Shown: piece after piece, positions 12,001 to 18,000 of the stretch
Layout of the letters: the number at the start of each line of letters is the position of its first letter
Position numbering within the stretch: the stretch's first letter is position 1
Source: a virus
Reading direction: 5' to 3' (one strand)
UHGV virus genome: UHGV-0184554
Length of the DNA: 23,835 bases
Position numbers: made by a program

Positions 12001-15000
12001 AATTTTTACTCATTGGGTACCTCCGTAAACTGACCCTGTAGAATCAGTTGTGCCAGTTGTTCATCTGTTAGATTGAGTACGTGAGGAGCCACCTTCCGAA
12101 ATGCACTTTCCTCAGTAGCGGTTATATTTTCACGTTCATTTTTTGCGTATGCATATACGAAAAAGGCCCTTGTGCCGACGCGATAGAAAATGATTGTGCG
12201 ATAACCGCCAGATTTGCCGCCACCGACTCGTGGCAGACGTTGCTTGATAACGCCGTTACCCAGGTTTGCTGAGATAAGCCCGTTATCAGCCTGTTTAACA
12301 ATTTCGCGCAGTGACTGGTCGGATATTTTGTTTTTGCGTGCAAATCGCTCAAACCAGGCGTTTTTAAAAATGCGCATTTTTTGTTCCGTTATTAATGTAT
12401 AACACATAGTATTACATTGCGTAGGGATCTGCAATGCCATCAGTTTGACAACGTCGCGTATCCGGGATTATATTCTCCGCACGCCAGCAAAATCTGGCGT
12501 CGGGATTGAGACCCCGGATATTCAACCGCGACAGACACACGCCGCGAGCGTGTTTTTTATTGTCGTATGCACACGCACATCTGAATTAGCGTGGGATGTG
12601 TTCGAAAAACTGGAAGACTGCTATTTCAGTCAAAAAATCCCAGAACAACTTCAGCTTCCAGAATCAACACTATCTATCAACTACCCTCTCTCGTGGTTTT
12701 CTGAACATCACCCCTACTCCATGATGAGCTATGTTGATCGAAAAACTCTTAACCTGGACGTTTCTGTGCTCTTCGATATGCCAAGCCCAACTATGCGCAT
12801 CCTCAACGAGCTACACAGCAAGGGCTATAACGTCGATGCCGCTGTTGCTGAATTTAACGCCTTCAAACATCTGACGGAAGAAATGCGCCGCACGCTACAG
12901 GATATTTCAAGACTGTCAGATCGAAATTCCCGAAAAGGCTTCACCTTAAGCCTCTGACCTCCCCCACTACCCCGACATCCCGTCGGGGTTTTCATATCTG
13001 GAGACAAAAATTTGAAACAGATCGCTTTCTACAGGCGTTCTGGAAGGCCCGGTGTCTTCCGTGGGTTAAAAGAACGCGTCACCTGGATGATTCAGTCTCG
13101 TGGTCGTCCTGTTACTGGTAGTGAAATAGCAGAGAAATTTGGTGTTTCACTTTGCGAGTTCAACAAGGTAGCACGCAGCCTGACAAAAGGCAGTAAGGTT
13201 GTGAAAATCAAGGCTTCAGAGCCATTCACCACAGACACCGGAATCGTTGATCGCTTTTTCTCCCTCGAATCAAATCCTCGTCGTGACACACCTCGTTCAC
13301 GCAATGCCGTTCCTCCATTCAGTCGCAGAAGCCGTGAACACGCAGCAAAAAACTGTCGCGAGGAATACGTGCAAAAGGCCGAACGCCGTCGCCGACTGAT
13401 TAAAGCAGGACTTTACATTGATGAGTTTGAAAAGGCGCTATGACTAACAAATACACTCTCATTTACGCAGATCCACCTTGGACATTCCGCGACAAAGCAA
13501 CCGATGGTCAACGCGGTGCAAGTTTTAAATATCCGGTCATGAGCCTTCTCGATATCTGCCGCCTCCCGGTATGGGAACTGGCAGCAGATAACTGCCTGTT
13601 GGCTATGTGGTGGGTGCCTACACAACCACTTGAAGCATTGAAGGTTGTAGAAGCATGGGGCTTTCGCCTGGTGACGATGAAAGGATTAACCTGGAACAAA
13701 TGCGGGAAAAGACAGACCGACAAGCTGGTCATGGGTATGGGTAGCACCACTCGCGCTAACAGCGAAGACTGCCTTTTTGCAGTGAAAGGAAATCTGCCTG
13801 AACGCATTAACGCCGGAATAATTCAGTCATTTACTGCACCACGCCTTGATCACTCCCGCAAGCCGGATATGGCGCGAGAAAAACTTGTGCAACTTCTTGG
13901 CGATGTTCCCCGGATAGAACTGTTCGCCCGCCACACCTCGCATGGATTTGATGTATGGGGTAACCAATGCGGAACACCATCCATTGAGATGGTTCCGGGT
14001 ATTGTTAAATTTCTGGAGAAAACCAATGAGCGAAAAAACGACGTTGACAAAGGCATCACCAGTTGAATTAAGGCAGTGTCTGGAAATCGCAAATCAACTT
14101 GCCAGAAGTGGAATACGCTTTGTTCCAATCCCGATCACAGCAGATGCAGAACTTCATCTGTTTGGTGAAATTCTTTCCCGAAAGCTGGATGAACTGGAAA
14201 AGCTGGTAGAAGAAGCTGACACCTCACCAATCGCATAACACCCCCACCGACATTAAAATATCAGGAGAAAAAAATGAACGCCGTACTCACAGAATTGAAC
14301 AAATTAGGAAAAACAACAGCCGACAGCATTTCTAAAGGTCTCAATATTGATTTGAATGACGTCATTGATACGCTGTGGAAGTTGAAAAACCAGGGGATCG
14401 TAAAGGTAAAAAACGGCATCTGGCAGGCAGTAGAGGGAGTTGGAAGCAAAACAGATATTGATTCAGTTCAACCAGTTCAGCCAGTTCAGCCAGTTCAGCC
14501 AGTTCAGCACAACATTATAGGTGACCTGCTACGTAAATCACGGAAAGAAGCGCGCCGCGCCGGGCGGAAACAGAAACGATGGGAGGGTGCATGTAAGGCG
14601 TTGCAAGAACTGAATAAATACCGTGACTTGATCAACGAATTGTCAGAGTGAACGTAGCGGGAATCCACGTCCTTTAGGGCGTGGATGATATCAGGCTGTT
14701 GAAATACATGTAGAAAAGGAGCGCATACTATGGAAGTCAACTTAATGACCGAAAAAGAGGTTTCTGATTTGTTACAAAAAAGGCGCACAGCTTTGTATAA
14801 TTTGCGAAAAAAACACGGATTCCCGGAACCAGTACTTACTCATCCGGCGCGATATAGTCGTCAGGCCGTTGAACAATGGCTTAAAGCCGGAGGAATTAAC
14901 CGAGCTGTTTAGCGTGCCAGAAAATTTTATCAGCATACAACTCATACGCATCTTTCTGTTCCGACAACCAGTCGTGTTTATTATACACGGCCATAACTCC

Positions 15001-18000
15001 CCCAAGTTCATGCCCCAGCATTTTTTCAGTGACGTGGGGCATAATTCCTTCCCCAGATAAATTCGTTACCAGAGAACGCCTAAAATCATGCGTTCTCCAT
15101 TCAGGAATATCAATTTTCTCCCTTAACTTTTTCATGTACAAATTAGCCGACGAACGATCAATAGGTTTATCTATTTCCTGCCCGGGGAATAGCACATCAA
15201 AACCCGCATTAAGCAATCTCTCGATATAAGGTTTAACCTGAGTGAATACCGGACGCCGGATAATATTCCCCATTTTTGAATGCTCTTTTGGGGTTGTCCA
15301 GACCAGATCTTCCATGTTGAACTCACTGGCTGTCGCGAGACGTAGCTCAGAAAGTCTGGCCCCCCATAGCAATAGCAATTGATGTAACACCTTGTTGGAA
15401 GTAACTACTTTTGAGTTCTCCAGCGCCAGCCAAATTTTTGCCAGTTCCGTATAGGTAAGTACACGACTCCCTACATCTGGTTTTTTCCCAATATTCTTAA
15501 CACTAAGCTTGAGTAATTCGCATGATGGGATTAACTGGCGGCTGATACACCAGTTAATAACTGAACGCAGTTGTAACAACAAAACACGAGCCTTTTTCTT
15601 GTTGAGGCTTTCTTGTTTGTCAAAGAAACGAGCCCATGCCGATACTGGGATACTGGCAACTGGCGAGCCTTCAAACTGTGTGTACATAGTGTTGTACACG
15701 ACGGATCTGTAAAGCGTCTGTGTATTGGGTTTCAGATCAGTAACATACTTATCCCACCACTGATCCAGGCATTCTTTTAATGTCAGTTCGCCGTCACTGG
15801 GCGCAAAATAATTTTTAGGGTTAACTCCCTTCATGTACAATGCGCGCATCTCACCGACGATAACACGCGCGTCCTTCAGTGAAGTAGACGGATAGCGCCC
15901 GACAGTAAGACGTACTGGCTTACCATTCCAGCGATAACGGTACTGAAACGTGATAGTTCCTGCTGGAGTAATCCGCACACTTAACCCGTCACCATCGGTG
16001 ATTTCAGCAGGGCCAGAGTAGGGTTTTCCGTAGAGGCCTCGTAGTTTGGTGTCGCTCAGTGCCAATGCTTTATATCCTGTACACAAGTTTATAATGTATT
16101 CTGTACTCAATATGTACGCATTAGCAAGTGAACAAAACACTTTTCAACGCAAAAGAAGATAATCAACCATGAACAAAAACGAACTTACACCTTGATTTTA
16201 AAACCATAAAGACGGTATTATCAGTCATATGGTGAACAACCAAAATCAATACGCAACAATGTCCTCTTAGTTAAATGGATATAATGAATACAAGTATTAA
16301 CTAATTGATTTAAATACAGAAAGCACCAAAATAATCGTCATATCCGTACCCATTTATGTACACATCCCGTTAAGCATGCCCCGCACTTCCGTACGGGGCA
16401 TGTTCTTTACTCCACTCCCACTTTTTTGTTGTACTCGCGGTTAAACCGATCCACGGCAATTTTCATATCCCGCTCAACCGATTTCACCATCGCCGACTGT
16501 TGCGCCAGACTGAGAGTACTGTCGGCGTAAATAGCATCACGCTGTTTACGCAAATCCTTCAGTCTCTTCCGGGTATCCTGCATAAGCCCGTTCATCGACA
16601 ATTTTCCGTTGTTCTCGTCAATGAACGCCGTTCTTTCTGCACCGGTCAGACTCTTCAGCTCTGCGTGATACTGCGCAACCTCTGTCATCCGGTCGTACAT
16701 CTTCTGCTGGTCAGCATACGGCATCACCTCACCTGAAATTTTCCCCAGGAAGGGCACCTGCTGCTCCGGTATATCAATACCATTCAGCGATTTCACCGCC
16801 GCATCCGTGGTTTTGGAAATGAAGCGCCCTGTCCCTCCGGAGATATAGTCCACCCAGTATTTCAGCGATTCCGGTGTGATATCCACCGCGCCGGGACGGT
16901 ACTGGCTGCCACCTGAGAACGCATTCAGCCAGGATGCAAACGCCTTGTACGCTTCTGGCGTTGAACGTCTTCCCAGCTGGCTGTCAGGTTTTGGTGTACC
17001 AAACGGCATGTTCTCCTGGTAAATCTGCGCCCCCATGAAGTTTTCATTCATGGCAAGGTTCGCAAACGGACGCAGAATGGTCGGTGCTGCGTTTTTCAGC
17101 AATGCCCCCGACAACGTTTCCGACGTCTCGCTGCCGATCGGGCTGAATGCCCCCAGGATACCGCCGGCAACATTACCGGCAGCACGTGAAGCAGTCAGGT
17201 CGCCCGCTGCCACACCTTCAGCTGTATGACCAAGCAGGAAGAACACGTTGTACCCGTAAGGCAGAGGAATACTCCAGTACTCACCGGCCTTGCCCCCGAA
17301 CATCGATTTCATGATGACGAGGTTACGCTCTTTCACATGAGACGGTACTTTGTCGTACCAGTTAACCCCGTCATCATCCTCACCCGCCACACTGCGGTTA
17401 AGCGAGCCAAGCAGATAACCCGCTCCCACAGCTGCAAGCACGATTTTCTGCGGTACATTGAGATTCTTCCAGCGAAGGCGCTCCGGTAACGGCCCGTCGC
17501 CATTAAGATGTCCGAGCGTTCTCACCAGGTTTGCGGTCCCCTGAATGCTGGCGTTGGCAAACATGTACAGCGAGTTCATCAGCATCCCCTGCTCACCACG
17601 ACGGTTAAAGTTCACCGTCATGTTTTTGGCAAGAGACGCCGCCTGCTGGCGTGACAAACCGGCATCACGGGCGTGTTTATAGGCAGAAAGACGCAGAGCG
17701 TTTTCAACCGCGCCGTTGGCATCCTCGACCAGGTTCAGGAACGAATGCCATGCACCGATACTCTGGCCTTTCCATCCGCCCTTCGCCAGCGACACAAGGC
17801 GATCCATTTCCTTCTGCTGGCCCTCAAGGTCACCCATGTTAAACCAGCCGGTTTTACCTCCGTCCTCAACAAACTCTTTCCACACTTTCTGCCACTGTGC
17901 GCCTTTGCCCGTGAGGGTTTTACCCCGCAGACTGGCGTATACGGCTGACATGGCGGAACGGCTGTCTTTCACCACAGCCAGCGCGGATAAGTTATCCAGC

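Follow-up and report, generated by a model that had tools for sequence, protein, structure and literature searches.

The E. coli tRNA gene argW is the target of the KplE1 (CPS-53)/HK620/Sf6 integration module, in which the integrase IntS acts with the RDF TorI (Panis et al. 2010, PMC2951348). That module integrates at the argW 3′ end, with the tRNA gene preceding int on the same strand, and its int promoter overlaps attL, which leads to negative autoregulation by IntS and TorI; the same autoregulation was predicted for divergent tRNA–int pairs (PMC2951348). The 3′ end is the usual preference for integration into tDNAs (Williams 2002, as related by papers citing it), and a survey of Klebsiella, in the passages relevant here, describes a clade of integrases whose target is the 5′ end/D-loop of an Arg tDNA (arg2A) (bioRxiv 10.1101/2020.11.02.365908). 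In phage lambda, attB is intergenic, and int and xis are cotranscribed toward att from pL, with the promoter pI inside xis. Phage insertion at the front end of a tRNA gene is uncommon and has already been reported, and our main finding is to this extent already known; a keyword search of the literature returned nothing specific on a 5′-end position at argW in Stx phages.

The window analyzed here, the 23,835-nucleotide viral genome UHGV-0184554, encodes on its minus strand a 389-aa tyrosine integrase (14896..16065) that falls in PHROG 1 and contains the Pfam domains Arm-DNA-bind_3 (PF13356, 4e-17) and Phage_integrase (PF00589, 2.9e-17). The literature name for the integrase of argW-type Stx phages is intW. 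In agreement with the earlier note on this DNA, int converges on a small plus-strand gene (14730..14912) for an HTH protein, such that the long form of the int ORF (14896..16140) and the HTH ORF share 17 nt (14896–14912). On the other side of int, the last gene before attP is a minus-strand ORF for a giant polyvalent protein (16407..23810; 2467 aa), in which Pfam identifies LPD38, LPD5, LPD1, and MuF_C domains. The gap between the long int ORF and the giant gene, 16141–16406, is 266 bp with 35.0% GC, compared with 48.7% for the whole window, and bears a GC-rich hairpin (16375..16402, not assigned to a strand; 12-nt arms, 4-nt loop) directly after the giant-gene stop codon. The hairpin is strong, with a dG of −25.3 kcal/mol on the minus strand and −21.1 kcal/mol on the plus strand (z ~ −5), and none of 200 shuffles fold equally well. 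It is followed by a U-rich tail (TTCTTTA) on the plus strand only and was not called by a generic terminator scan.

Within this gap lies the attP core (16260..16284, plus strand), a 25-bp sequence, TGTCCTCTTAGTTAAATGGATATAA, that is identical to attB and consists of 1 nt upstream plus nucleotides 1–24 of E. coli argW, tRNA-Arg(CCU). The core covers the 5′ strand of the tRNA acceptor, the D-stem, the D-loop, and 3 nt of the returning D-stem. Comparison with the empty site of K-12, an approach that the earlier note had suggested, shows that identity between attP and attB ends exactly at both core edges, and attP, attB, and the attL and attR of lysogens have exactly these 25 bp in common. With phage and host identical over the core, the point of strand exchange can be resolved only to within 25 bp. 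The intact gap occurs in none of 5,426 complete E. coli genomes; in 209 of them it is split in two at the core, with positions 1–147 of the gap query adjoining tRNA-Arg and positions 117–266 matching elsewhere. One lysogen junction has the order xis/int/complete argW/intS and the other mlaA/yfdC/24-nt tRNA stub/giant gene (the giant gene adjoins yfdC in strain 472). The prophage recombines in upstream of argW, so that the native promoter and the 24-nt stub stay by yfdC and the giant gene, and the full tRNA is rebuilt beside int, now preceded by phage DNA. In addition, the same 25 bp are annotated in GenBank HQ424691 as an attL overlapping tRNA-Arg, a published primer for PCR of the phage–argW junction matches exactly at 15846–15865, and two further published primers were matched to the window by eye.

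These findings bear on the claim of the earlier note that the gap contains no tRNA and that integration may be at the 3′ end of a protein-coding gene. ARAGORN, run on the whole window, indeed detects neither a complete tRNA nor a complete tmRNA, and a search of 15900–16600 against Rfam at permissive thresholds returned chance-level matches only, none of them significant. The absence of a complete tRNA is in keeping with a protein-coding target and a gap unrelated to any tRNA, as is the behavior of a sister integrase clade (~56% identity), which targets the protein-coding gene sbcB. However, the 24-nt 5′ fragment of tRNA-Arg(CCU) at 16261–16284 had been overlooked, a piece too short for ARAGORN to call. 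The earlier note had itself allowed that a known att core found in this gap would count against it, and the core found here bears directly on the statement that there is no tRNA. Moreover, the 25-bp core corresponds to argW nucleotides −1 to 24, the split falls at argW in each of the 209 E. coli lysogens, and the GenBank attL annotation sits at argW as well. The comparison of attP, attL, attR, and attB already refutes integration into a protein-coding gene, which is left with a negligible probability; the target is the 5′ end of argW. Very probably, then, region 16066–16406 is the whole attP, in nonintegrated form, of a Stx-type podophage (Sepvirinae, Oslovirus PA2-like) that integrates at argW. 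The suggestions of the earlier note that the gap was a candidate att region and that the element might not be integrated in this view were therefore well placed.

The closest relatives of this locus are the Stx2a prophages at argW of E. coli O157:H7 and O145 (PA2, VT2phi_272, TW14359, EC4115), which have the same 25-bp att core and are 99.9% identical to the window at the DNA level over xis, int, and half of attP. The int product is likewise 99.7% identical in protein to the integrases of PA2, ArgO145, and Stx2a_F451. In these prophage records and genomes, however, the element is integrated and split at the core, whereas the window holds the joined attP, as do phages phi345, P27 (KU238067), 86, and Lyz12581Vzw (94.9–98.1% identity). 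More distantly, an Int of 85.8% identity is encoded by a Klebsiella phage, and Int proteins at least 57% identical are found in 20 Enterobacterales species (at least 67% in 19 of the 20). In all 20 of these species a tRNA-Arg(CCT) gene is divergent from int, with its 5′ end 171–204 bp (mostly 192–196 bp) from the int start. An element upstream of an intact tDNA with a displaced 5′ tDNA fragment, as observed here, is the arrangement that defines targeting of a tDNA 5′ end, and it has the same shape in the 20 species. Clade I.d of the Klebsiella survey is described in similar terms, in that the islands lie upstream of the tDNA with a D-loop sublocation and two elements can occupy both ends of one tDNA (bioRxiv 10.1101/2020.11.02.365908).

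Footprinting over 21 Enterobacterales elements and three phages revealed the architecture of the attP arms. Three direct arm-type repeats, TGNGTAC, are located on the minus strand of the int-proximal arm (16079–16085, 16103–16109, and 16114–16120); they are near-invariant in the 21 elements and are also kept in three diverged phages and in the sbcB sister clade. Two further matches to the motif (16346–16352 and 16358–16364, minus strand) occupy the int-distal arm, where TGTGTACATA...G-GTAC is invariant in the attP of yong2, AH07, and Lyz12581Vzw. Thus, 5 of the 12 TGNGTAC sites of the window fall in the 341-bp noncoding region (0.19 expected), all on one strand, in a 3 + 2 arrangement. Between the core and the two repeats of the distal arm, a candidate IHF site (16298..16310, minus strand), AATCAATTAGTTA, matches the consensus WATCAANNNNTTR perfectly and is partly conserved in Lyz12581Vzw and AH07; a partial IHF-like match is located at 16185–16197. 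Hafnia phage yong2 and Pantoea phage AH07 have an intact attP of the same layout. Outside the repeats, the promoter candidates, and the start codon, the int-proximal arm has drifted to 50–60% identity. By sequence, the locus therefore has the makeup of a lambda-type attP, with catalytic and arm-binding domains in the integrase, a duplicated core, and arm-type repeats on both sides. The resemblance to lambda extends to a core set between arms with 2 + 3 arm-type sites and an IHF consensus, and to an attP of roughly 290 bp. In contrast to lambda, int here leaves att and meets xis, and attB is the 5′ part of a tRNA gene. The 389-aa Int would bind the five direct TGNGTAC sites through its arm-binding N-domain, three of them on the int side of the core and two in the opposite arm, and IHF would bend the DNA at 16298–16310.

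The extent of the int-proximal arm depends on the int start, which the earlier note correctly described as ambiguous, GTG 16140 and TTG 16065 both being in frame. The Pfam arm-binding domain begins only at residue 28 of the long ORF, and the aligned start position is used by all 20 int homologues except one truncated relative, mostly as ATG and otherwise as GTG or TTG. Upstream of this position, the homologue alignment shows no coding-type conservation but a conserved AGGA; in the window, this Shine–Dalgarno sequence (16075..16078, minus strand) precedes TTG 16065 by 9 nt and is conserved in most of the 21 aligned elements. The RefSeq annotation of int is also 389 aa. This comparative evidence resolves the ambiguity to TTG 16065 as the predicted start, rather than GTG 16140, and the noncoding region is then 341 bp. 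The int gene is too long or split in several GenBank records, to which the same correction applies.

In the lysogen there is nothing phage-borne upstream of int, and xis is convergent; int thus needs its own promoter within the 195 bp that separate it from argW. The leading candidate, which we infer from conservation, is on the minus strand at 16098..16127, with a −35 TTGCTA (16127–16122), an 18-bp spacer, and a −10 CAGAAT (16103–16098). The pattern TTG(C/T)CA-18-CA(G/T)AAT is kept in 20 of the 21 elements, 35–64 nt before the int start, with the −35 TTG and A2, A5, and T6 of the −10 as invariant columns. The sequence scores 8/12 here, below the cut-off of a generic scanner, and was for that reason not reported by the scan. 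The one minus-strand site that the scanner did report, 16224–16195 (CTGATA-18-TAAAAT), was rejected as the int promoter because the 21-element alignment shows no conservation of its hexamers. The earlier note had rightly called for a separate int promoter, given that int cannot be served by an early-left promoter in common with xis, although it had sought it in 16141–16406, an interval that does not include the best-conserved candidate; the latter falls within what the note had taken as coding sequence of int. Alternatively, int might lack a dedicated promoter and be read through from the giant gene/late operon in the circular phage. Indeed, the giant gene and int share a strand, and the hairpin between them, uncalled by the terminator scan, has no U-tract on that strand, so that read-through into int is physically possible in the circular form. 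Yet the promoter-like TTGCCA-18-CA(G/T)AAT is found in 20 of 21 elements of quite different cargo, and the giant gene and int are separated at opposite ends of the prophage, which means that read-through cannot supply Int for excision. We therefore regard read-through as improbable. The dedicated promoter candidate contains two of the arm-type sites and, because arm sites lie within and just downstream of it, Int probably represses itself, by analogy with the negative autoregulation experimentally shown for IntS of KplE1. Intasome geometry would account for the constant spacing throughout the arm just as well as promoters do.

The likeness to the KplE1 module in regulation, which shares with this locus a target gene, separate transcription of int and RDF, and an int promoter (here a candidate) inside the int-proximal att arm, leads one to expect autoregulation by arm-site occupancy here as well. 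The arrangement differs, however, as int and argW are divergent here and the insertion is at the 5′ end. Homology of the two modules was considered and rejected, as comparisons with IntS and with TorI both fail: Int aligns with IntS at only 29% identity over 93 N-terminal residues, and the small HTH protein gives no BLASTP alignment with TorI. This HTH protein is a presumed excisionase (RDF), with the Pfam domain HTH_17 and membership in PHROG 66, "excisionase and transcriptional regulator"; its homologues are convergent with int and directly after it in 25 related loci, and it is annotated as Xis or excisionase in phage records. Three direct GTTCA repeats on the minus strand (16129–16133, 16170–16174, and 16233–16237), partly conserved as GTTC(A/G), could, speculatively, be RDF binding sites.

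The int-proximal arm also contains a motif directed the other way, toward the tRNA. A scanner called a σ70-like sequence on the plus strand at 16192..16221, composed of TTGATT, an 18-bp spacer, and TATTAT, with a G at −14 (16214). In the otherwise poorly conserved stretch 16132–16259, identity of at least 95% is found only at 16187, 16192–16194, 16214, 16216–16217, and 16220–16221. The pattern TTGnnn-18-TAnnAT is present with constant spacer in 20 of 21 elements (the remaining one has TAAGCT), and the motif was also seen by eye in yong2 and AH07. Most likely, 16192–16221 drives argW in lysogens, replacing the displaced native promoter. A rival interpretation is that these bases are sites for intasome proteins (IHF, RDF, or Fis) that resemble a promoter by chance. 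On the opposite strand, an IHF-like ATCAAnnnnT that includes the invariant base 16187 coincides with the −35, and the conservation could for that reason be at least partly architectural; specifically, the best-conserved positions of WATCAANNNNTTR are matched by the minus-strand CAA together with the invariant T of 16187, and the geometry is fixed over the whole arm. Furthermore, argW is dispensable in E. coli, and a replacement promoter is thus not strictly required. However, IHF leaves the invariant G16214, T16216, A16217, A16220, and T16221 unexplained. These bases are −14, −12, −11, −8, and −7 of an extended −10 element, and the positions between them vary freely. The motif is also absent from all nine sbcB sister-clade arms, which keep the same arm sites, though this is a weaker discriminating test since the sister clade, too, replaces a 5′ end, perhaps with the help of a different promoter. 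Chance resemblance of intasome sites to a promoter thus remains a serious contender, somewhat less probable than not. Keyword searches returned nothing specific on a phage-supplied "argW promoter" in the literature and no discussion of a replacement promoter in the matching passages of the Klebsiella preprint (bioRxiv 10.1101/2020.11.02.365908).

A broader picture can tentatively be drawn, whose chances we put only just short of even: an integrase family specialized in the 5′ ends of target genes, with an int-proximal arm that carries replacement expression signals. In the argW clade, the σ70 promoter TTGnnn-18-(G)nTAnnAT, ~40 nt before the tRNA +1, would maintain expression of tRNA-Arg(CCU), now under control chosen by the phage, and in the sbcB sister clade the element would give exonuclease I a new start codon and N terminus. 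The displaced native argW promoter would transcribe the 24-nt tRNA stub into the phage arm, and this transcript could end at the plus-strand hairpin/U-tract (16375–16409), yielding a lysogen-specific small RNA of ~150 nt.

The identification of this gap defines the attP of the argW-type Stx2a phage lineage, which is epidemiologically important (clade 8 O157:H7, O145, and others). A single argW copy is found flanked in tandem by the argW-type phage system on one side and the KplE1 system on the other, and because argW carries two unrelated integrase systems from its two ends, the tandem prophage arrays at this hotspot are explained. The conserved outward promoter-like element is the one part possibly worth experiment. 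If it is real, lysogeny would rewire expression of a rare-codon (AGG) tRNA, and the element would show how the 5′ end of a gene can be used as an integration target without inactivating the gene.

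The ORF map confirmed the layout described in the earlier note. The integrase ORF (14896-16140, minus strand; Pfam arm-DNA-binding and tyrosine recombinase domains) and a 60-aa helix-turn-helix ORF (14730-14912, plus strand; Pfam HTH_17), the presumed excisionase gene xis, are convergent and overlap by 17 nt (14896-14912). On its other side, int is separated by a 266-bp gap (16141-16406) from a minus-strand ORF of 2467 aa (16407-23810) encoding a polyvalent protein (Pfam LPD38/LPD5/LPD1/MuF_C). The gap is AT rich, as had been noted, with 35% GC compared with 48.7% in the window, and its far end forms a strong hairpin (16375-16402; dG −25.3 and −21.1 kcal/mol on the two strands, z ~ −5).

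The proposal that this gap is a candidate att region was borne out by comparison with lysogens and the empty site. Used as a megablast query against 5426 complete E. coli genomes, the gap matched in 209, each time at two separate places, and was intact in none of these 209; query positions 1-147 adjoin an annotated tRNA-Arg, while 117-266 lie at the other place. Reading of both junctions gave the order mlaA, yfdC, a 24-nt tRNA stub and the giant gene at one, and xis, int, a complete argW (the tRNA-Arg(CCU) gene) and intS at the other, with the remaining phage between them. Alignment of attP, attL, attR and the K-12 attB, the empty-site comparison called for earlier, located the att core as a single common block of exactly 25 bp, TGTCCTCTTAGTTAAATGGATATAA (16260-16284), at both edges of which the attP/attB identity ends. 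This block corresponds to the base preceding argW and tRNA nucleotides 1-24. The identical 25 bp are annotated as attL, overlapping tRNA-Arg, in GenBank HQ424691 (VT2phi_272); a published phage-argW junction primer matches exactly at 15846-15865, and two more published primers match the window by eye. The gap is the attachment site of a known lineage and the window is its phage (attP) form, in line with the earlier suggestion that the element may not be integrated here. The phage is an Oslovirus PA2-like member of the Stx-converting Sepvirinae; the integrases of PA2, ArgO145 and Stx2a_F451 are 99.7% identical to its Int, and records with an intact attP show 94.9-98.1% identity.

Integration thus takes place not at the 3′ end of a protein-coding gene (the giant ORF), which had been raised as a possibility, but in the 5′ part of a tRNA gene. 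ARAGORN found no complete tRNA in the window, and Rfam gave no significant match in 15900-16600, which agrees with the earlier note, although nucleotides 1-24 of argW are present at the core. The overlap region of strand exchange is predicted to be the D-loop AATGGATA, flanked by GTTA/TAA. Since int and argW read away from each other and the core belongs to the 5′ portion of the tRNA gene, the prophage is inserted upstream of the complete argW, leaving the native promoter region at the yfdC junction in lysogens. The giant gene, being last before attP, sits at one prophage edge. The U-rich tail of the hairpin (16375-16409) is on the plus strand only, so its orientation is wrong for the giant gene; in lysogens the native argW promoter, now displaced, and the 24-nt stub are ~90 nt upstream of the hairpin (comparison locus L003, 2440-2660). 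Termination of a short transcript specific to lysogens is one possible role, protection of the giant gene against antisense transcription another.

Alignment of the arm and comparison with the intact attP of Hafnia phage yong2, Pantoea phage AH07 and E. coli phage Lyz12581Vzw revealed conserved TGNGTAC direct repeats in the int-proximal arm (16079-16085, 16103-16109 and 16114-16120) and in the other arm (16346-16352 and 16358-16364). Five of the 12 such sites in the 23.8-kb window fall in the attP region, all on one strand, where 0.19 would be expected; attP therefore extends over ~16079-16364. A perfect match to the IHF consensus lies at 16298-16310. Int would be expected to occupy the core together with all five arm sites, on DNA bent by IHF.

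When one genome was scanned for each species, 33 loci with Int relatives were found. In 20 species, including members of Erwinia, Enterobacter, Pantoea, Brenneria, Xenorhabdus, Providencia, Tatumella, Salmonella, Morganella, Proteus and Rouxiella, int is divergent from a tRNA-Arg(CCT) whose 5′ end lies 171-204 bp, mostly 192-196 bp, from the int start (195 bp in the window). Int identity in these species is at least 57%, and at least 67% in 19 of them. Because most of the arm has drifted to 50-60% identity, the int-tRNA alignment serves as a natural footprint. In it the Int start, M-A-L-S-D, falls on TTG 16065, where most species have ATG, with AGGA in front; in combination with the Pfam domain boundary and the RefSeq annotation, this settles the choice left ambiguous earlier between GTG 16140 and a TTG near 16065. 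Public records vary: RefSeq has the 389-aa form supported here, HQ424691 a 414-aa ORF with the GTG start (L001, 1797-3041), and yong2 a “hypothetical protein” plus a shortened integrase (L038, 2478-3670). A 2.9-kb contig, JAVBSF010000516.1 (L013), from an alphaproteobacterial MAG labelled Pararhizobium sp., carries an Int 76% identical and a xis homologue, and is probably a binning contaminant. The 17-nt int/xis overlap of E. coli Stx phages is kept as far away as Pantoea phage AH07 (L039, 3654-3670; L040, 797-813; L002, 1256-1272), and in 25 related loci int is followed by a convergent xis homologue. This arrangement points to a fixed cassette in which the two genes may be coupled by antisense effects or transcriptional interference.

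In a lysogen, only attL and chromosome lie upstream of int and xis is convergent, so we infer that the int promoter is in the 195-bp spacer. The need for a promoter of its own, argued in the earlier note, thus stands; the conserved candidate on the int strand, TTG(C/T)CA-18-CA(G/T)AAT (16127-16098), falls outside the interval then proposed (16141-16406), which had been measured from the wrong start codon. In the circular form, int could be reached by read-through from the giant gene, since the hairpin has no U-tract on their common strand; in the prophage each of the two genes is at a different end, so read-through cannot serve excision. The candidate promoter has two arm sites within its spacer and one just downstream, and Int occupancy should repress it, by analogy with IntS, integrase of KplE1 (CPS-53), for which repression of its own promoter has been demonstrated (PMC2951348).

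On the strand opposite int, the arm alignment contains a conserved TTGnnn-18-TAnnAT with G at −14 (16192-16221; TTGATT-18-TATTAT in the window). Apart from these columns and 16187, none in 16132-16259 reaches 95% identity; the −35 TTG, −14 G, −12 T, −11 A, −8 A and −7 T are invariant, and positions between vary freely. We lean slightly toward reading it as an argW promoter brought in by the phage. Alternatively, CAA and T16187 on the complementary strand could make up an IHF site, a reading that leaves the −10 block unexplained. The motif is missing from all nine sister-clade elements (Int 54-63% identical), which keep the arm sites. Our literature search found no description of this candidate replacement promoter, the only such element here.

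The attP of argW-type Stx phages is already known, and the 5′-end arrangement at a tRNA, uncommon as it is, has been described before. Panis et al. named the divergent shape “opposite-divergent”; with one other shape it makes up <8% of tRNA-integrase pairs, and autoregulated int genes were predicted for it (PMC2951348). A Klebsiella survey describes an integrase clade targeting the 5′ end or D-loop of an Arg tDNA, arg2A, with islands upstream of the tDNA and both ends able to carry one (bioRxiv 10.1101/2020.11.02.365908). The IntS-type element, which is unrelated, uses the 3′ end of argW and lies in tandem on its other side. In E. coli O157:H7 G5295 (L002, 2621-4014), both ends of a single argW copy are taken: the 5′ side holds an Stx-type prophage, and at the 3′ side an element of IntS type (CPS-53/KplE1-like) starts. 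Identity between Int and IntS is just 29%, across 93 N-terminal residues; Xis and TorI, the KplE1 RDF, gave no alignment.

The sister clade (Int ~56% identical; loci L025, 1395-4179, and L042, 596-3380) occurs also in phages mEp234, Sf101 and Stx2a_F349. It is divergent from sbcB, ~180 bp from the sbcB 5′ end, and supplies that gene with a new start codon and N terminus, MTDTDKQP-TFLFHDYET, in which element-derived MTDTDKQP is fused in frame to host TFLFHDYET. From this N terminus and the argW motif together, the whole integrase family seems to target the 5′ ends of genes and to replace the parts it displaces.
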